A stretch of DNA of 15,180 bases, from assembly GCA_048939465.1 (NCBI GenBank), contig JBHLPL010000042.1, forward strand, positions 1-15,180, written 5' to 3'. The notes below the pieces were generated by a model. It was not told the origin of the DNA and searched no databases. It saw nothing but the letters and a program-made list of their open reading frames with translations. Shown in pieces: positions 1,809 to 14,209 of the stretch. The translations under genes were made by a program, and so were the position numbers. Source of the stretch: Promethearchaeota archaeon. Lineage in GTDB: Archaea > Asgardarchaeota > Odinarchaeia > Odinarchaeales > JBHLKK01. Numbering within the stretch: the first letter of the stretch is position 1; the number at the start of each line of letters is the position of its first letter.

Positions 1809-3224
1809 ATGAATGAAAGCTATCTAGAATGCCCTCAATGTAAAACCAGCTATGGGGCCTTCCCCCCCAGGTCCAAGTGCTCAGATTGCGGGTCAGCCTT
1901 GGAGTATCAATATGACTACGAAGCACTTAGGCCTGTCGTATCTTTGAAGGGAAGCATAAGCTTCTGGCGTTATGCTTCATTATTGCCCGAAGTAAAAGCC
2001 AAGTACAGGATCTCGTTAGGAGAAGGTGGGACGCCCGTAATAGCAGCAAAACGACTTGCAAAAGAATTAGGTCTTGTGCGATTGGCACTTAAAGATGAGA
2101 CAAGAAATCCCACGAATTCCTTTAGGGACAGAGCAGCAACACTTATGATCTCCAATGCATTTGAATATGGTCACAAACACGTAATCTGTGCCTCTAATGG
2201 AAACCTGGGTGCATCTGTTGCCGCTTATGCCGCCAAAGCAGGTCTCAAATGTAGCGTCATCGTACCTCGGAAGGTCCACGTTGGAAAGCTTGCGCAAATG
2301 TATGCCTATAATGCACTAGTTACTACAAAAGGCGACATTGTGGATGACTCTATAGAACTGGCAGAAAAACTGGCAAGAGAAGAGGATTTGTACCAAGCTA
2401 CGGATGGTCTAAATCCCTTAACTATCGAATCCCAGAAGACAATAGCATTTGAGATCTCGGAGCAAATCGATATTCCTGACTGGATAATTGCTCCTATGGG
2501 AAGCGGGGGTACGGTATATTCCATTTGGAAAGGCTTTAGGGAACTTGAACTGTTGGCTCTTTCTGAGAAGCTGCCAAGAGTAGTTGGAGTTCAGGCTGAG
2601 GGGTGTGCACCCATAGTGAGGGCTTTTGAGAGGAACGGTAGGATCGAGAGTCTCTCCAAAGTGGGAACAGATGCTCTTGCCATTCTTGTAAAACAACCGT
2701 TGAGCGGTGAACGGGCACTAGAGGCAGTCAGGGAATCTGGTGGTCTTGCCACCTCGGTATCCGATGAAGAGATACGAAAAGCCGAACGTCTTATTGCTCA
2801 ATCGGAGGGACTTTTCTCTGAACTAGCTAGTGCTGCGACAATATCTTGTGTTCAGAAGTTGGTGGCAGATGGAACAATCGATTCTCAAGATCGGGTTGCT
2901 TGCTTAATCACTGCTAGTGGTCTAAAGGCCCCCTATGTCCTTGAAGCTCTGATTAGGCATCCAAAAGCTATTGGGATGAGGGGGAAAGTAAGCGTAAAGC
3001 TTAGAGTCCTTCGTCTTCTTGAATTGGGCAAGTCCTACGGCTACCTAATTTGGAACAGCCTAGGCCGCTCTGTAAGCCTTCAGGCAGTCTATCAGCATTT
3101 GACTGAGCTGGAGGAGAAGGATTTGGTATCTTCTAAGGAGGAAGGTAAACGAAAATATTACAGAATCACTAATCGCGGGAAGCGAGTTTTGAACGCTTTA
3201 GAGGAACTTGCTATGCTTTTCTGA
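1809..3224 (+). CDS. Threonine-synthase-like (PLP fold type II) protein with N-terminal Zn ribbon and C-terminal PadR/ArsR-like winged helix; predicted pseudoenzyme and transcription regulator
   Basis: CPQC-x12-CSDC ribbon; SLGEGGTP; LKDETRNPTNSFRDR (canonical SFKDR); ASNGNLGAS; PMGSGGT; ITASGLK. Residues ~395-471 (LRVLRLLELGKSYGYLIW...QAVYQHLTELEEKDLV...RKYYRITNRGKRVL) form a typical wHTH. The symbol thrC is withheld because the catalytic Lys is absent. Confidence 0.88.
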   Translation: MNESYLECPQCKTSYGAFPPRSKCSDCGSALEYQYDYEALRPVVSLKGSISFWRYASLLPEVKAKYRISLGEGGTPVIAAKRLAKELGLVRLALKDETRNPTNSFRDRAATLMISNAFEYGHKHVICASNGNLGASVAAYAAKAGLKCSVIVPRKVHVGKLAQMYAYNALVTTKGDIVDDSIELAEKLAREEDLYQATDGLNPLTIESQKTIAFEISEQIDIPDWIIAPMGSGGTVYSIWKGFRELELLALSEKLPRVVGVQAEGCAPIVRAFERNGRIESLSKVGTDALAILVKQPLSGERALEAVRESGGLATSVSDEEIRKAERLIAQSEGLFSELASAATISCVQKLVADGTIDSQDRVACLITASGLKAPYVLEALIRHPKAIGMRGKVSVKLRVLRLLELGKSYGYLIWNSLGRSVSLQAVYQHLTELEEKDLVSSKEEGKRKYYRITNRGKRVLNALEELAMLF

Positions 3225-3255
3225 TATGGTGATCTTCTGCTTCTAGCACAAGTGT

Positions 3256-3298
3256 TATATACAAGTTATAATTTTATTAAAGTTTGAACTTGTATATA
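3256..3298. promoter_or_regulatory. Perfect 12-bp inverted repeat enclosing a TATA-like box upstream of the ECF S-component gene
   Basis: TATATACAAGTT (3256-3267) and AACTTGTATATA (3287-3298) are exact reverse complements. The 19-nt spacer contains TTTATTAA (3273-3280). SD GGTGA at 3301-3305 and ATG at 3311. Confidence 0.7.
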
Positions 3299-3310
3299 CT
3301 GGTGAAGTAT

Positions 3311-3877
3311 ATGGGAATAATTGACATCATCCGTGAAAAAACCCCGCGATATCCTGCCAGCTTAAATATAGCCCTTATTGCCGTTTTCACACCCCTTACG
3401 ACCGCCTTAACGATGTTTATTCAAGTTCCTGTTCCTGCCACTGAAGGGTACATCAACATAGGTGAGGTCGGCGTCTTTCTATCTGGTCTGCTCTTGGGTC
3501 CAGTGGGAGGTGCGATAGCAGGAGGTGTTGGTTCTGCGCTCGCAGATTGGGTCACAGGTTGGGTCATTTACGTACCTTGGACCTTCGTGATTAAGGGTAT
3601 GGAGGGATTAATAGTTGGACTCTTTAGCAGAAGAAGGACAGCTTTCAATGCAGTTGTAGTCATTGCAGCTGGCCTTTGGATGGTTGCAGGCTACTTCCTG
3701 GTTGAAGGGTTTTTACTATGGGGGGTCGCAGCCGCAGCGATAGAGATTCCTGGAAACCTAGTACAGGTCGGTGTTGGAGCAACTATTGCTTTGCTTGTTG
3801 CTACCCTAGTTAGGCCGGCAATGCCATTTCCCAAGGAAGGTCCTCAAGAAAAGGAAGAGCCTACGACGAAGAGCTAG
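3311..3877 (+). CDS. ECF transporter S-component, resembling the HmpT/PdxU2 (COG4720-like) family
   Basis: About 6 hydrophobic helices; motifs QVPVPATEGYINIGEVGVF, GGVGSALAD, FVIKGMEG, MVAGYF, IPGNLVQ. The start is moved from 3284 to ATG 3311 because of the GGTGA SD. Substrate is not established. Confidence 0.85.
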   Translation: MGIIDIIREKTPRYPASLNIALIAVFTPLTTALTMFIQVPVPATEGYINIGEVGVFLSGLLLGPVGGAIAGGVGSALADWVTGWVIYVPWTFVIKGMEGLIVGLFSRRRTAFNAVVVIAAGLWMVAGYFLVEGFLLWGVAAAAIEIPGNLVQVGVGATIALLVATLVRPAMPFPKEGPQEKEEPTTKS

Positions 3878-3996: not shown

Positions 3997-4018
3997 ATAT
4001 TTGGAGATTGGTATTCAT

Positions 4019-4519
4019 ATGGACTTTCAAGAATTAAGAAGACAACTGCCGGATATCTTTGAACGGGTAAAGAGGGATGTTGAAGACGAGACCGGACACC
4101 ATCGAGCTGGTCTTGCTCTTGGCCTCGTAGAAATGGGTATGTTTCGAGGTGGATTCATCGGCGGAATGTTCTTCTCCGGTGGAACAATGATCTTGATGAA
4201 TAGAACACCTCTGCGGATAATCATGGCAGAGCAACCTGATGAAGTCGTCTGGGCCTACAATTATCACATTCTGTTGCATGAGTACCTACATTCACTGGGC
4301 TTTATGGATGAACGTCAGGTCAGAGCACTCACGATCGGAATCAGTCGAAGTGTTTTTGAAGATCCTGGGCATCCTTCAGTAGTCCTTGCTGAGAGGGGCA
4401 TAGGCGCCTTTTTCACGAACTTACCGTTGATCTACGCTCCCCCTGGATTTAGTCCCAAAGGACTGCACATCGATGTCGTGAAGGATTTTGATAAAGGGAG
4501 TCAGACCTACTTCAGTTGA
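4019..4519 (+). CDS. Small soluble zincin-like metalloprotease (hypothetical)
   Basis: HEYLHSLGFMD (His codons 4277 and 4289) fits HExxHxxGxx[H/D]. No obvious signal peptide or TM helix. ATG 4019 is preferred over TTG 4001 because GGAG lies upstream of it. Confidence 0.7.
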   Translation: MDFQELRRQLPDIFERVKRDVEDETGHHRAGLALGLVEMGMFRGGFIGGMFFSGGTMILMNRTPLRIIMAEQPDEVVWAYNYHILLHEYLHSLGFMDERQVRALTIGISRSVFEDPGHPSVVLAERGIGAFFTNLPLIYAPPGFSPKGLHIDVVKDFDKGSQTYFS

Positions 4520-4598: not shown

Positions 4599-5372
4599 TC
4601 AATTAGCCTCTGCCAGTTCGAAATCCATGACGCGAGATTCCTCTTTTATCCACCGTCCTCGTCCTGTCGTTCTAAAAAGCAGTGTGAAGATTATCCCACC
4701 CATGAATCCGCCTATGTTGGCCGTGTTTCCAAATACATAGAACGTACCGAAATTTATCACAAGAAGCGTAAACGCCAACTCGAATAATATAATGACTACC
4801 ACAAAGAACCAAGCAGAGATCCTAGCTGTCCTTATCACAGTACGATAATACATGGTGCCATAATACTCCCTGGCCAGATAATATATCTTAAGCTTTCTTT
4901 TTGGAAAGAAAAAGGCATAGGCTGCCATGATTCCGAATACGGCTCCCGATGATCCCCAAGCTGGGAGGTCCATTGCGGGGGTAAGAAAGGTCACAACTAG
5001 GGCTGAGTGAAATAGACCTCCTATGACTCCACAGAACAGGTAGAATAAGAGGAACAGGACGTTTCCAAAGACATTTTCAGCATCATCTCCAAAAAGGCCG
5101 AGCAGGAACATATAAACTCCAATATGAATCAGACTGAGTGGCCACCCGTCATATAGGCCCACGTGCAAGAATATTGATGTTATTAGTGCGTGAAGATTCT
5201 GCCCATTCATGAGCTGAGACGGTATTAATCCGAAGTCATTCTTGAGAAACGCGTATATCTCTGGACTTATGTTTTCAACAAAATACATTGCCAGGGTAAT
5301 AATTATTATCGCATAGGTGAAGAATGGCTTCGTTACCTTACGAAGTTGCTTTTCTTCGGTCGGTAATGCCAA
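4599..5372 (-). CDS. Rhomboid-family membrane protein, predicted catalytically inactive (pseudoprotease)
   Basis: Rhomboid TM pattern, SIFLH, FGDDAE..FG, FYLFCG, GSSGAVFG (Ser kept), but ANIGG in place of AHxGG and HIGVY in place of HxxxN. TTG start with a GGAG/GAGGGGAG SD. An in-frame TGA just upstream fixes the earliest possible start. Confidence 0.88.
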   Translation of the reverse strand: MALPTEEKQLRKVTKPFFTYAIIIITLAMYFVENISPEIYAFLKNDFGLIPSQLMNGQNLHALITSIFLHVGLYDGWPLSLIHIGVYMFLLGLFGDDAENVFGNVLFLLFYLFCGVIGGLFHSALVVTFLTPAMDLPAWGSSGAVFGIMAAYAFFFPKRKLKIYYLAREYYGTMYYRTVIRTARISAWFFVVVIILFELAFTLLVINFGTFYVFGNTANIGGFMGGIIFTLLFRTTGRGRWIKEESRVMDFELAEAN

Positions 5373-5588: not shown

Positions 5589-6317
5589 TCAGTATTCTTC
5601 TACACGGAAATAATACTCATCTGGAAGCTCCTTCTTTTCCTTCCAAGGTCCTCTCCCGGTCAGCTTGAAAATAAGGGTAAACGCTGCTCCTGCAATGAAT
5701 CCCCCTACGTGAGCTGTGTTTGCTATTGAAACGGAGAGACCAAGAGTTATTGAAAATATGGAATACATGACTTCGATTGCTACCAAGAAGGCCACCGCAG
5801 CGAGTGCAGGTAGTTGCACAGGGTAATAATACATGAACATCATGAGTCTCCTTTTCGGAAATGCGAGCGCGTAGGCTGCCATAACTCCGAATATGGCACC
5901 GGAGGCTCCTATAGTCGGGATATTTGCCATACCAGGCAGGAATAATACAGTTATCGCCGAATGAAACAGACCGGCTATGATCCCGCAGAATAGGTAGAAG
6001 GTGAGAAACAGGGGCGATCCAAAGATCCCTTCGGCATCATCCCCAAAGATGAATAGAATGTACATATTCATGAAGATATGAAGCAGCCCGTAGTAGCCCT
6101 CGTAAATACCAGCATGAAGAAACATGGATGAGAGCAGTGTAATTAGGTTTTGCCCACTCATTATCTCCGCAGGTCTAAGGCCGTAGTTATTCACCGCGAA
6201 AAGATAGGTACCAAGATCTAGGTTTTCAAAAATGTACACTATTATGTTAATCAAGATAATTGAGTACGTAACAATAGGTCTTATTTTCTTACGTCCAGGC
6301 TCCGCTTCAAATATCAC
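5589..6317 (-). CDS. Rhomboid intramembrane serine protease, catalytically intact
   Basis: SMFLH, HIFMN oxyanion motif, GASG (Ser codon 5901-5903), AHVGG (His codon 5709-5711). GTG start. Confidence 0.93.
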   Translation of the reverse strand: MIFEAEPGRKKIRPIVTYSIILINIIVYIFENLDLGTYLFAVNNYGLRPAEIMSGQNLITLLSSMFLHAGIYEGYYGLLHIFMNMYILFIFGDDAEGIFGSPLFLTFYLFCGIIAGLFHSAITVLFLPGMANIPTIGASGAIFGVMAAYALAFPKRRLMMFMYYYPVQLPALAAVAFLVAIEVMYSIFSITLGLSVSIANTAHVGGFIAGAAFTLIFKLTGRGPWKEKKELPDEYYFRVEEY

Positions 6318-10168: not shown

Positions 10169-10319
10169 GCAGACTCTTATTCATAAAAGAACGCCTCTCT
10201 GTTTCTTGCCCCGAATACATAGGTTAATCTATAATCTTAATAACCATCTGTAGGTAAGATATTACTCCAAAACGTTTCACTGCTCATTGATATTGCAGAT
10301 TGAAGGAGGGATAATAAAC

Positions 10320-12191
10320 ATGGGCATTCCCGTTTTCGCAAAGGATTCTCCAGGCGAGCAAGTTCTTCTGTGGGGGAATGAGGCCATAGCCAGAGGTGCT
10401 ATCGAAGCTGGCGTGAATGTTGCGGCATCTTATCCGGGTACCCCCGCTTCCGAAATTCTGACAAGTCTAGCGAGGGTGGCCAAAGATTTTGACATGTATG
10501 CTGAGTGGTCTACAAATGAGAAAGTTGCCATGGAGGTTGCCATTGGAGCTGCCATTACCGGTTTGAGATCGATGGTTTCTATGAAACATGTCGGGCTCAA
10601 CTGGGCTGCAGATCCGCTTATGTCCCTAAATCAATCTGGCGTCCGCGGTGGCATGGTTATCGTCACAGCTGACGATCCAAGCGCACACAGCTCTCAGAAT
10701 GAACAGGACAACCGATTTTATGCCATGTTTTCTGAGTTGCCAATGTTGGAGCCGGCAGATCCCCAAGAAGCAAAAAACATGACTGCCGAGGCCTTCGACC
10801 TATCGGAAGAGTTAGAACTTCCTGTTATGATTCGGTCAGTAACTAGGTTAAGTCACTCAAGGGGCAACGTTACGTTGGGTCAAATAAGACCAACAAAGCA
10901 GAAGGCCGAATTCGTACGGGATCCCCATAGATGGGTTATGGTCCCCTCTTGGGCTCATCATAGACACAAGTGGCTCCACGAAAAGCAGAAACTAATTCAA
11001 GAGCTAACGCTGGCTCTACCTTACAATGAGCTAAGAATAAGAGGAAAGGAGTTAGGTATCGTTGGATGCGGTTCCGCCTCTAATTATGCGCTAGATGCCT
11101 TGAAGATTCTTGAACTTAACGATAAGGTTTCATACCTCAAAATCGGCGTTGCCAATCCGGCTCCTACTCCTCTAGTAAAGACTTTGCTACAGAGCGTAGA
11201 GAGAGTCCTAGTCTTGGAGGAAGTCGAGCCTTTTGTGGAGAGGAGGCTTAAAGAAATAGCCTATGACTTAAAAGCTAGTGTAGACATAAGGGGTAGACTG
11301 ACCGGTGACTTACCTAGGGAGTGGGAGTTAAACGCTGAGCTGACCGTTTCTGCCATTTCTAAGCTACTGGAACTCGAACAGAATGAAAGCTTCGAGTTGT
11401 CGAAGAGAAGTAGTGATTTGATACCTCCAAGAAGCATTGTAATGTGCCCTGGCTGTCCTCATAGAGCAACCTTTTTTGCAATTCGCCGAGCAATCCGAAA
11501 ACCGATTATTACGGGCGACATAGGATGCTACACTCTTAGTGCGTTTCCGCCGTTGGAGATGCAGGACACCTGCTTCTGCATGGGCGGAAGCATAGGCATT
11601 GGGATCGGTGTGTCCAAAGCGGGGGTTGAAAATCCCGTAATCGCAACCTTGGGAGACTCTACTTTCTTCCACGCAGGAATGCCTGCATTGGTCAATGCAG
11701 TATTTAATAAAGCGAATCTAACGATCATCGTTTTTGATAACCAGACTGTAGCTATGACCGGCTTTCAGCAGAGTCCAAGCGCTGGAAAAACAGCAATGGG
11801 CGAAACCACACACATAATAAGAATCGAGGAGATTGCCAGGGCATCTGGCATAGATTTTGTCGAAGTCATTGATCCTTTTGACATCGAGAAAAGCATCGAA
11901 GTAATTAAGAAAGCGGTAGAACACAATGGTCCCGCTGTTGTGGTTTCTAGAAGACTCTGTGCGTTGCTACAGACCAAAATCGATGAAAGAGAAGGAAAAC
12001 CCAAGGTTCTCTATGCGGTTGATTCCGAAAAATGCACGGGTTGCAAAATCTGTCTACGTGACTTCGGCTGCCCTGCAATAGTGTGGGATGAAGGAATCGA
12101 GAAGACGAATGTTGAGCCGACGCTTTGCGTTGGATGCGGTGTTTGTGCTGAAATCTGTCCGTATCAGGCTTACTCCGAAGTGGAGGATTAG
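10320..12191 (+). CDS. iorA: Indolepyruvate:ferredoxin oxidoreductase alpha subunit
   Basis: GNEAIARGA, YPGTPASE, EWSTNEKVA, MKHVGLN, DDPSAHSSQNEQD, MCPGCPHR, GDIGCY, GDSTFFHAG...N (ThDP motif), and a C-terminal 2x[4Fe-4S] domain (CTGCKIC...CP, CVGCGVCAEICP). Start moved to ATG 10320 because of SD AGGAGGG at 10304-10310. Confidence 0.96.
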   Translation: MGIPVFAKDSPGEQVLLWGNEAIARGAIEAGVNVAASYPGTPASEILTSLARVAKDFDMYAEWSTNEKVAMEVAIGAAITGLRSMVSMKHVGLNWAADPLMSLNQSGVRGGMVIVTADDPSAHSSQNEQDNRFYAMFSELPMLEPADPQEAKNMTAEAFDLSEELELPVMIRSVTRLSHSRGNVTLGQIRPTKQKAEFVRDPHRWVMVPSWAHHRHKWLHEKQKLIQELTLALPYNELRIRGKELGIVGCGSASNYALDALKILELNDKVSYLKIGVANPAPTPLVKTLLQSVERVLVLEEVEPFVERRLKEIAYDLKASVDIRGRLTGDLPREWELNAELTVSAISKLLELEQNESFELSKRSSDLIPPRSIVMCPGCPHRATFFAIRRAIRKPIITGDIGCYTLSAFPPLEMQDTCFCMGGSIGIGIGVSKAGVENPVIATLGDSTFFHAGMPALVNAVFNKANLTIIVFDNQTVAMTGFQQSPSAGKTAMGETTHIIRIEEIARASGIDFVEVIDPFDIEKSIEVIKKAVEHNGPAVVVSRRLCALLQTKIDEREGKPKVLYAVDSEKCTGCKICLRDFGCPAIVWDEGIEKTNVEPTLCVGCGVCAEICPYQAYSEVED

Positions 12192-12197
12192 TACACG

Positions 12198-12842
12198 ATG
12201 TCCCCCGTCAAAAGGCTTGAGGAATTCAATCTGTTAATTGCAGGTGTCGGCGGTCAGGGCATAGTTCTGGCCGCCACAATCTTAGCAAATGCCGCTGTAA
12301 AGAATGGAATAAAGGTGAGGGCGGCTGATACGTTCGGCGCAGCTCAAAGAGGTGGTCCTGTTCTGAGTCACATAAGAATGGGCAGTGAGGTCTACGGACC
12401 TTTAGTTCCTAAAGGACGGTGTGATGTTCTTTTGGGATTTGAGCCTATTGAGGCTCTGAGAGTAGGGGAGGAATATCTATCCTCCAGAAGTTATGTACTG
12501 ATGAACACTAAACCCATCTTCTCAGTTGATGTAACAACAGGAAAAGCGTCCTATCCCCCAATAAGAAAAATCATCGATTCGTTAAGAGATATAACCAAAG
12601 ATGTGGTAACAATAGAAGCGACCAGTCTTGCAGTAAGAACCGGGAACGTTGTAAGTACTAATGTTGTCATGCTTGGAGGATTGTCGGCAAGCGGTAGGAT
12701 TCCTCTGGCGATTGAGGATATTAAAGACTCAATTAAAGAGATCATTCCTAAAGGCAAGCAGAAAATGAACTTGAACGCGTTTGATTTCGGAGTTAAGGCA
12801 ATAAAGGAGAAGTTAGAAGAATCCAAATCAAGAAGACAGTGA
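12198..12842 (+). CDS. iorB: Indolepyruvate:ferredoxin oxidoreductase beta subunit
   Basis: IAGVGGQGIVLA, GAAQRGGPVLSHIRMG, DVLLGFEPIEALR, NVVMLG, NLNAFDFG; 6 nt downstream of iorA. Confidence 0.96.
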   Translation: MSPVKRLEEFNLLIAGVGGQGIVLAATILANAAVKNGIKVRAADTFGAAQRGGPVLSHIRMGSEVYGPLVPKGRCDVLLGFEPIEALRVGEEYLSSRSYVLMNTKPIFSVDVTTGKASYPPIRKIIDSLRDITKDVVTIEATSLAVRTGNVVSTNVVMLGGLSASGRIPLAIEDIKDSIKEIIPKGKQKMNLNAFDFGVKAIKEKLEESKSRRQ

Positions 12843-14209
12843 GAAGATGCTTCTCATCGCTCCACATATGGACAGGAGGGACAAAAACGAAGAAACGAAA
12901 CGATCGGTATTGGGATAAAGAGGTAGAGACGCTTCCTTTGCCAAGATTAAGAGATCTGCAACTCAAGAGATTGAAAAGTATAGTAAAATACGCATACGAA
13001 AATGTTTCCTTGTACAAGAGGAAGTTTGATGAAGCAGATGTAAAACCAGATGAAATCGAGAAGCTTGAGGACATCACAAGACTTCCATTTACTAGAAAGG
13101 AGGAACTGAGAGACAGTTACCCCTTTGGAATGGTCGCAGTACCTTTTGATAAAATAGTCAGGATTCACGCAACTTCGGGTACAACTGGAAAACCGACCGT
13201 CGCATGTTATACCAAAGACGATATTGAGACTTGGACCGACTTAATGGCAAGGTGCATGTATACCGCGGGAGTAAGGCAAGATGATATCGTTCAGAATGCC
13301 TATGGGTACGGGCTATTCACGGGAGCTTTAGGGTTTCACTACGGTGGAGAGAGGATAGGATCGACTATTATACCCACTGGCAGTGGAAACACGCAAAGAC
13401 AATTGATGATAATAAAAGACTTTGGGACGACCGTTCTATGTTCCACCCCATCTTTTGCTGCATACTTGGCAGAAGTTGCGAGAGAGCAGGGTATGATCAT
13501 GAGTGAAGATGCGAGAATAAGACTTGGATTGTTTGGAGCTGAAGCATGGTCTGATGAATTAAGGAAAAGAATAGAACAGGAATACAATATGGCTGCTATT
13601 GACTTCTACGGACTTGCAGAGATAATTGGTCCCGGAGTCTCGGTTGAATGTTACGAAAGAAATGGATTACACCTGTGGTCTGATCATTTCTACGCTGAGA
13701 TAGTCGATCCCGCGACAGGCATTGTGTTGAATCCTGGTGAAAGGGGCGAACTGGTCATAACAACCTTAACAAAAGAGGGCATACCGGTAATAAGGTACAG
13801 AACGAAAGATCTGACAATTATTGATGAAGAAGAATGTAGCTGCGGTAGGACTCATCCGCGTATTGCACGAATACTTGGAAGATCGGATGATATGATAGTC
13901 ATACGAGGGGTAAATGTGTTTCCAAGCCAAATCGAGCACGCATTAATCGGTATAAAGGGTGTTACCTTAAATTATCAGATAGTCCCAAAGAGAGCGGTCA
14001 GATTGGATGTTGAGATATTAGATCATCTTCTTGTGAGAGTTGAGCCTGAAGAAGAAATATGGGAGAATAAGAGGCTGGGGGATGAGCTTAAGAGAGAGAT
14101 CACTGAGGAATTGAAAAGCGCCCTTGGTCTGAGAACGGAAGTTGAGCTAGCTGCTCCTGGTAGTCTTCCCAGATCAACTGGAAAGGCGAAAAGAATCGTT
14201 GAGGAGTAG
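12839..14209 (+). CDS. paaK: Phenylacetate--CoA ligase-like (aryl-acetate CoA ligase, ANL superfamily); start position uncertain
   Basis: RIHATSGTTGKP, AYGYGLFTGALG, GLFGAEAWS, YGLAEIIGPG, LVITTLTKEGIPVIRYRT.D, GRSDDMIVIRGVNVFPSQIE, GKAKRI. The GTG start overlaps the iorB stop (GTGA). Confidence 0.93.
   Translation: MRRCFSSLHIWTGGTKTKKRNDRYWDKEVETLPLPRLRDLQLKRLKSIVKYAYENVSLYKRKFDEADVKPDEIEKLEDITRLPFTRKEELRDSYPFGMVAVPFDKIVRIHATSGTTGKPTVACYTKDDIETWTDLMARCMYTAGVRQDDIVQNAYGYGLFTGALGFHYGGERIGSTIIPTGSGNTQRQLMIIKDFGTTVLCSTPSFAAYLAEVAREQGMIMSEDARIRLGLFGAEAWSDELRKRIEQEYNMAAIDFYGLAEIIGPGVSVECYERNGLHLWSDHFYAEIVDPATGIVLNPGERGELVITTLTKEGIPVIRYRTKDLTIIDEEECSCGRTHPRIARILGRSDDMIVIRGVNVFPSQIEHALIGIKGVTLNYQIVPKRAVRLDVEILDHLLVRVEPEEEIWENKRLGDELKREITEELKSALGLRTEVELAAPGSLPRSTGKAKRIVEE

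Follow-up and report, generated by a model that had tools for sequence, protein, structure and literature searches.

A lysine-less threonine synthase-fold protein fused to a PadR winged helix, a probable vitamin B6-responsive regulator of a transporter gene in Archaea

What does a predicted threonine synthase do when its catalytic lysine is missing, a DNA-binding domain is fused to its C-terminus and the gene of a putative vitamin importer follows it on the same strand? The question is raised by a 15,180-nt stretch of DNA (contig JBHLPL010000042.1, assembly GCA_048939465.1; here called the window) from a Promethearchaeota archaeon of the order Odinarchaeales. An earlier note, made from the letters of this DNA, had picked out three co-oriented elements, namely a gene for a regulator resembling a pyridoxal 5'-phosphate (PLP) enzyme, a palindromic promoter region and the gene of an energy-coupling factor (ECF) transporter S-component, and had read them as a vitamin B6-sensing module; all three are present where it placed them (Table 1). 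We consider it probable that these elements form a B6-responsive regulator, operator and transporter module, with regulator binding to the operator, the ligand sensed, repression and the vitamer transported all being points that we infer from sequence comparison. With slightly less confidence, we propose that lysine-less proteins combining the threonine synthase (ThrC) fold with a PadR domain are B6 regulators of Archaea, their regulon comprising the PF07155 S-component gene, pdxS-pdxT and possibly an ECF module, and that loss of the lysine is what made a reversible PLP sensor of the enzyme.

The domain content of the regulator agrees with the PLP pseudoenzyme joined to a winged helix-turn-helix, carrying a lysine-to-arginine exchange, that had been described from the translation: Pfam recognizes a PALP and a PadR domain, and the Schiff-base motif reads SFRDR, with Arg106 aligning with the Lys of SFKDR in the threonine synthases 2d1f and 2zsj. 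The sensor domain is 36-41% identical to solved ThrC structures and conserves the GN.GAS, GSGG and TxSGLK motifs. Pfam finds neither a GntR nor an aminotransferase domain in the protein, the arrangement being instead a fold-type II PALP domain followed by a C-terminal PadR domain. The AlphaFold2 model (mean predicted local distance difference test score, pLDDT, 88.3) consists of an enzyme-like body, a disordered linker at residues 383-392 and a winged helix, with helices and a beta-hairpin wing at residues 390-470, and its best Foldseek matches are all ThrC structures, with target-normalised TM-scores (template modelling scores) of up to 0.86. The N-terminal CxxC...CxxC segment is probably a zinc ribbon, to judge from its cysteine pattern. 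Homodimer prediction placed an interface in the enzyme-like body with a score of 0.83 (best of three controls, 0.00), a contact agreement between runs of at least 42% and a pLDDT of at least 86. Of 30 proteins solved as same-chain pairs, 20 attained this mark, against 1 of 23 single-chain structures; the pass may reflect only the likeness of the protein to solved threonine synthase dimers.

Searching 5.8 billion proteins gave 120 close homologues of full length, each with both domains, which come from Bathyarchaeia and from Asgard lineages that include Odin and Frey. An arginine occupies the Schiff-base lysine position in each of the 121 close homologues. Conservation within the family was judged on an alignment of 28 sequences, in which the four N-terminal cysteines, Arg106, GN.GAS, the glycine-rich loop at residues 231-233, TxSGLK and the predicted recognition helix are invariant or nearly so; residues A426, Y428, Q429, H430 and L431 of that helix are invariant. 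In fold-type II enzymes the GN.GAS, glycine-rich loop and TxSGLK segments contact PLP. Since these motifs are kept whilst the Schiff-base lysine is replaced, the cofactor pocket looks preserved and its covalent anchor lost. A second lysine-less subfamily was met in a sample of 251 Bathyarchaeia genomes (loci L090-L099, from genomes G090, G049, G165, G009, G116, G096, G126, G036, G042 and G242). Its members have the same two domains, a length of 480-510 aa and approximately 40% identity to the protein of the window, carry Ile, Leu, Met or Val where the lysine would be, and are usually divergent from, rather than upstream of, an S-component gene or pdxS-pdxT, with 5 of the 10 divergent from the same kind of S-component gene as in the window.

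The pairing of the regulator with an S-component gene extends well beyond the window. A genome scan with one genome per species yielded 290 stretches with a relative of the regulator, of which 80 were fetched, and the neighbours of the regulator gene were classed by clustering all open reading frames (ORFs) of the fetched loci. An S-component gene adjoins the regulator gene in 72 of the 78 informative genome loci (two further loci lie at a contig edge), and in 66 of these 72 the two genes are on the same strand and no more than 300 bp apart. Amongst metagenome loci, a PF07155 gene lies downstream in 65 of the 70 that are informative. The neighbourhood check that the earlier note had proposed thus found an adjacency that is not unique to the window's genome. 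The pair spans Bathyarchaeia and Asgard lineages, is kept in two close relatives (regulators 82% and 91% identical) and, in a longer relative contig (L108), stands in the same MCM-GINS-regulator-S-component order as in the window. Downstream of the S-component gene, 56 Bathyarchaeia loci (L053:6264-7283 is one) carry a 339-aa gene related to AIR synthase that the window lacks; it was considered as a thiL gene, which would have been a link to thiamine, and rejected, its best matches (HypE, ThiL and SelD) all scoring far below their cut-offs.

The S-component itself matches PF07155 (the HmpT/PdxU/PdxU2/RibU group) with 121 bits against a cut-off of 26.7, over model positions 6-168 of 172. Its single sequence match in the PDB is the Lactobacillus brevis HmpT/PdxU2 protein (4hzu_S; E 2e-19, residues 22-164), so that the resemblance to this group first noticed by eye is borne out by the sole match amongst solved structures; the motifs on which that impression was founded (P..GY.NIG, ALAD, MV.GYF and GN..Q...G) are all in the translation. 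PF07155 includes both proposed bacterial ECF-type B6 transporters, PdxU and PdxU2/HmpT, the substrate having been verified for PdxU2/HmpT only (PMC9997740), and pyridoxamine was found bound to HmpT (PMC4860826). Four of the six HmpT pocket residues are kept in the window's S-component, Glu41, Tyr120, Asn140 and Gln143 of HmpT corresponding to Glu52, Tyr128, Asn149 and Gln152, and its pocket residues show conservation across 73 orthologues. The longest ORF for this gene opens at a TTG at position 3284, within the inverted repeat; the ATG at 3311, with GGTGA just before it, is the likely start, and the gene as called in an 82%-identical relative also encodes 188 aa. An energising module is encoded on another contig of the same genome (C55), where two ATP-binding cassette (ABC) ATPase genes are followed by a CbiQ/EcfT gene with no S-component alongside.

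Between the regulator and S-component genes lie 86 bp, which contain the inverted repeat. Its 21-nt arms are 86% complementary and contain perfect 12-nt cores 19 nt apart, and a 12-nt arm was reached by none of 2000 shuffles of the intergenic region, which upholds the 43-bp palindrome of the earlier reading. Neither the repeat nor its 8-nt core recurs elsewhere in the 1.96-Mb genome, and the arms are kept in the relatives with 82% and 91% identical regulators. Comparison across lineages resolves a smaller unit within it. In Bathyarchaeia the intergenic spacer holds a 22-bp palindrome with the consensus TAGTATAGTT-NN-AACTATACTA, and the same layout occurs in the Odin-lineage loci L007, L016 and L024, with half-sites ending CAAGTT or AAAGTT. 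The corresponding candidate operator of the window is TATTAAAGTT-TG-AACTTGTATA, which overlaps a TATA-like TTTTATTAAA (3272-3281); the 43-bp repeat is this 22-bp operator plus one extra upstream half-site (3256-3267). The 22-bp operator is therefore conserved from Asgard archaea, the window included, to Bathyarchaeia. Of 155 loci, 106 have a core of the TATAG-N6-CTATA type, with at most one substitution, in the 200 nt that follow the regulator gene, against an expected background of 0.008 per segment taken from the remainder of the same loci.

The palindrome is also rare elsewhere in the genomes that carry it. In five large or complete Bathyarchaeia genomes it is confined to the regulator locus, with a single copy in four of the genomes and a pair of overlapping sites in the remaining one. 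In the window's genome AAGTT-N2-AACTT has four occurrences, nothing resembling the operator was found upstream of ecfA on contig C55, and the regulon in this organism seems to be the S-component gene alone. In certain other genomes the regulon may take in the ECF energising module. An operator-like site with one mismatch (L215:1454-1469, G227:C12) is situated 6 nt upstream of two tandem ecfA-ecfA'-like ABC ATPase genes; the same 16-mer is present in G058:C29 and G253:C30, and the three genomes are perhaps close kin. For the second subfamily a motif, TATATAAG-N7-CTATATA, was noted at both S-component-linked and pdxS-linked loci, and was given little weight since it lies between divergent genes and may be two TATA boxes.

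A link to vitamin B6 that does not pass through the transporter comes from loci in which the regulator stands beside B6 biosynthetic genes, an association that the earlier note had proposed looking for. At L083 the palindrome comes after the regulator gene, with pdxS (341 bits) 16 nt further on and then pdxT (184 bits); the genome has no other exact copy of the palindrome and no strong PF07155 gene was found in it. The same regulator and operator precede pdxS in a metagenome contig (L126), and in L090 a regulator of the second, sister subfamily is divergent from pdxS-pdxT. Seven Bathyarchaeia genomes contain both the regulator/S-component pair and pdxS, on different contigs, and in all seven an operator-like site lies between a TATA-like box and the pdxS start. 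These seven genomes hold 16 exact matches to the operator core, 15 of them at the regulator/S-component locus or the pdxS promoter: exact matches occur at the former in seven genomes and at the latter in five, the pdxS site of G227 having one mismatch. The single exact match elsewhere (L214:1559-1574, G137:C17) is approximately 60 nt upstream of a 489-aa ORF with ArsR-type helix-turn-helix, ATP-cone and anaerobic ribonucleotide reductase domains. Regulons of bacterial PdxR comprise pdxST, pdxK and pdxU (PMC5320631).

Neither PdxS nor PdxT nor PdxJ could be found in the window's genome (91% complete). Seven genomes from its order, amongst them one on a single contig at 98% completeness, likewise gave no PdxS, and six of the seven have the regulator. 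The organism appears unable to make a B6 vitamer. Amongst 251 sampled Bathyarchaeia genomes (at least 80% complete), PdxS scored above cut-off in only 27, so that the known archaeal route of de novo B6 synthesis seems rare in this class.

On the reading that we favour, the regulator would be a one-component transcription factor whose ThrC-fold sensor has a PLP pocket and lacks the Schiff-base lysine. Since the lysine is lost and the pocket appears to be kept, the sensor would be catalytically dead, and its binding of a B6 vitamer, most likely PLP, would be reversible. Dimers would form through the enzyme-like body, each subunit carrying one linker-tethered PadR winged helix. When B6 is sufficient, the liganded dimer would occupy the 22-bp operator, cover the region from the TATA box to the start and block transcription of the S-component gene; since the operator overlaps the TATA-like sequence and reaches to within 14 nt of the start codon, a protein bound there should block initiation, as judged from the general workings of archaeal promoters. 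When B6 is low, the operator would be freed and the S-component made, which would then dock on a shared EcfAA'T module encoded elsewhere and import a B6 vitamer.

Table 1. Features of the regulator and S-component locus, in window coordinates.
Feature	Position	Strand	Details
Regulator gene	1809-3224	+	471 aa; putative zinc ribbon, lysine-less threonine synthase-fold sensor, linker, PadR winged helix; ORF, Pfam PALP and PadR
Putative four-cysteine N-terminal zinc ribbon (C8/C11/C24/C27)	1830-1889	+	CxxC...CxxC pattern, Cys invariant (28 sequences)
Fold-type II PLP-enzyme domain, residues 68-368, proposed sensor	2010-2912	+	Pfam PF00291 (PALP), 243 bits
Arg106, codon AGG, at PLP Schiff-base lysine position	2124-2126	+	Alignment to 2d1f and 2zsj
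Flexible linker, residues 383-392, between sensor and winged helix	2955-2984	+	Sole internal segment with pLDDT <50
PadR-type winged helix-turn-helix, residues 400-462	3006-3194	+	Pfam PF03551, 38.2 bits (cut-off 27)
43-bp inverted repeat over S-component promoter	3256-3298	.	Perfect 12-nt arms 3256-3267 and 3287-3298
22-bp candidate operator core	3275-3296	.	10-nt half-sites ending AAGTT / AACTT, 2-nt spacer; ends 14 nt before ATG
Putative Shine-Dalgarno-like GGTGA	3301-3305	+	5 nt before start codon; kept in relatives
S-component gene, ECF HmpT/PdxU/PdxU2 family (PF07155), proposed B6 vitamer importer	3311-3877	+	188 aa; Pfam 121 bits

Several points weigh against this reading. Loss of the lysine could mean that PLP binding has been lost altogether. 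Two of the six HmpT pocket residues are altered in the S-component (His84 to Lys95 and Gln87 to Glu98), and the pyridoxamine assignment of HmpT is itself based on co-purification mass spectrometry together with simulations; the altered residues are themselves conserved across 73 orthologues, K95 in 67 and E98 in 69. Unrelated genes lie downstream of the regulator in 6 of the 78 informative genome loci, and, in its right arm, the window's operator is a poorer fit to the consensus across lineages than are the Bathyarchaeia sites. No PdxK/PdxY-type kinase was found in the window's genome, where only a ThiDN-type kinase was seen, and the route from an imported vitamer to PLP may involve a ThiD-type kinase or the import of a phosphorylated vitamer. 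At 91% completeness, genes that were not found are not proven absent from this genome. Presence of the regulator and absence of pdxS are, moreover, not strictly complementary, and phyletic complementarity was discarded as support: pdxS is unseen in most genomes with the regulator, but also in most genomes without it.

Amongst the alternatives, one keeps B6 as the signal and changes the logic, such that activation would come from the ligand-free form, or the molecule sensed would be a PLP-amino acid adduct, pyridoxamine 5'-phosphate or pyridoxine 5'-phosphate instead of PLP. It has a precedent in bacterial PdxR, an activator that is switched off by PLP (PMC5320631). The position of the operator speaks for repression, lying as it does over the TATA box-to-start region in the window and right before the pdxS start codon in L083. 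Archaeal repressor sites usually lie over the region between the TATA box and the start, and we regard this alternative as unlikely.

The descent of the sensor domain from threonine synthase suggests another possibility, namely a threonine-pathway regulator whose dead domain would read O-phosphohomoserine, threonine or a related amino acid and would control thrC or an amino-acid-related uptake function. In several Bathyarchaeia genomes a canonical thrC is indeed head to head with the regulator gene (G227:C1:144112-146822, G221:C1:79958-82674, G253:C49:3090-5839, G167:C17:9092-11783 and others, given as genome, contig and positions), an arrangement equally explained by tandem duplication and consistent with an origin of the regulator by tandem duplication of thrC. 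The operator, however, lies at the other end of the regulator gene, by the S-component gene or pdxS and not at thrC, and in the window's genome the canonical thrC, with an SFKDR motif, is on a different contig. Furthermore, the regulator family reads D/A-G/E-L-N-P-L-T/I where ThrC has NSVNPxR, a segment that presumably holds the substrate phosphate. Control of the threonine pathway is, on this evidence, distinctly unlikely.

A thiamine-precursor module, in which the S-component would import hydroxymethylpyrimidine (HMP) and the regulator would sense HMP or a thiamine intermediate, has in its favour that HmpT was first named for HMP, its predicted substrate, as an importer (PMC4860826), and that the window's genome encodes a ThiDN-type HMP kinase. 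Against this, thiC is present in the genome (636 bits), so that HMP phosphate is made in-house and import of the precursor is not needed; the same regulator and operator stand at pdxS-pdxT in other genomes, and the sensor has a PLP-enzyme fold. We consider HMP import very unlikely.

The remaining alternative is the annotation itself. Threonine synthase models rank first in an NCBIfam search of the regulator, the thrC domain model TIGR00260 scoring 218 bits, above its cut-off of 167, and the close homologues are called threonine synthase wherever the source names them. Although TIGR00260 is passed, the loss of the catalytic lysine in every member, the fused DNA-binding domain, the separate canonical thrC and a conservation of neighbourhood and operator far above chance make an active threonine synthase in a chance neighbourhood extremely improbable. 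A second model, NF004170, is a curated 'equivalog' model of 442 positions that aligns with the fusion from end to end, winged helix included; it scores 411 bits on the regulator, under its cut-off of 421, and was above cut-off in none of 14 control genomes, amongst them Sulfolobus acidocaldarius, Haloferax volcanii and two methanogens. This model seems to propagate a wrong name for the fusion family.

The rest of the window encodes MCM, GINS, two rhomboids, GlmS, EF-1 alpha, an indolepyruvate oxidoreductase pair, an acyl-CoA ligase and a major facilitator superfamily (MFS) transporter, and these remaining genes have no evident B6 link. Directly after the S-component gene, a 172-aa ORF (4001-4519, + strand) without a Pfam or NCBIfam match contains an HExxH-like HEYLH motif and may encode a small metallopeptidase-like protein. 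It is followed by tandem rhomboid-family genes on the - strand (4599-5372 and 5589-6317; PF01694, 57 and 88 bits). Positions 10287-14209 (+ strand) hold an indolepyruvate-type 2-oxoacid:ferredoxin oxidoreductase pair (TPP and POR domains), then an AMP-binding acyl-CoA ligase gene and the MFS transporter gene, which together look like an aromatic amino acid fermentation cluster.

If lysine-less ThrC-fold/PadR proteins are indeed B6 regulators of Archaea, the S-component under their control would be the first importer of B6 to be put forward for this domain, and B6 auxotrophy with reliance on this importer would be expected of most Bathyarchaeia and of the Odin-related Asgard lineage. The surveys of B6 metabolism consulted here cover bacterial MocR-type regulators only and three bacterial transporters, only two of them with a verified substrate (PMC9997740, PMC5320631), and the family would fill archaeal gaps in both the B6 regulator and the B6 transporter. 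The rarity of PdxS, in Bathyarchaeia and in the window's order alike, points to a wide dependence on B6 supplied by the community, which would be useful in designing media for hard-to-grow archaea. The family would also be a case of a pseudoenzyme turned sensor, in which removal of one catalytic lysine gave reversible cofactor binding. As for annotation, relatives occur in at least 290 species genomes, and naming them threonine synthase inflates predicted threonine synthesis. Our literature searches found no description of a ThrC-fold/PadR fusion or of any archaeal B6 regulator, in keeping with the suggestion of the earlier note that an analogue of PdxR/MocR built from a different PLP fold, here fold-type II joined to PadR, had not been described.

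Amongst known systems, the S-component is closest to HmpT/PdxU2 (4HZU chain S) and PdxU, with which it shares PF07155 and, with HmpT, the pocket Glu, Tyr, Asn and Gln. It differs from HmpT in its moderate identity over the aligned stretch, in having Lys95 and Glu98 for His84 and Gln87, in its archaeal host and in the proposed control of its gene by a protein regulator encoded next to it. The regulator has the fold of ThrC and shares a putative N-terminal zinc ribbon with the archaeal-type ThrC of its own genome, but lacks the Schiff-base lysine, has altered surroundings of the substrate site and has gained a DNA-binding domain. With PadR and LmrR it has in common a PadR-type winged helix and, binding here being predicted, a palindromic operator whose half-sites are short. 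Classical members of the PadR family are small proteins that use their own C-terminal helix for dimerisation, with the ligand sitting between the two subunits, whereas here the PadR domain is an appendage on a 380-residue enzyme-like predicted dimer. In the CymR-CysK system of Bacillus subtilis a fold-type II PLP protein also gives metabolite sensing to a transcription repressor. There, CysK is an active enzyme that binds the repressor as a separate protein, whereas in the archaeal system a dead paralogue is fused to the DNA-binding domain. The nearest counterpart in function is bacterial PdxR/MocR, in which a PLP-enzyme-like sensor is likewise fused to a winged helix. The aminotransferase-like domain of MocR proteins typically keeps its lysine. 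MocR joins an N-terminal GntR winged helix to a fold-type I aminotransferase-like domain, in contrast to the lysine-less fold-type II sensor, C-terminal PadR winged helix and archaeal hosts found here. The PdxR regulon, too, combines pdxST with a PF07155 transporter gene, pdxU, and its effector is PLP (PMC5320631). PdxR is a bacterial activator, whilst the likely action of the archaeal protein, from the placement of its candidate operator, is repression. The two are functional analogues that are not homologous as a whole.

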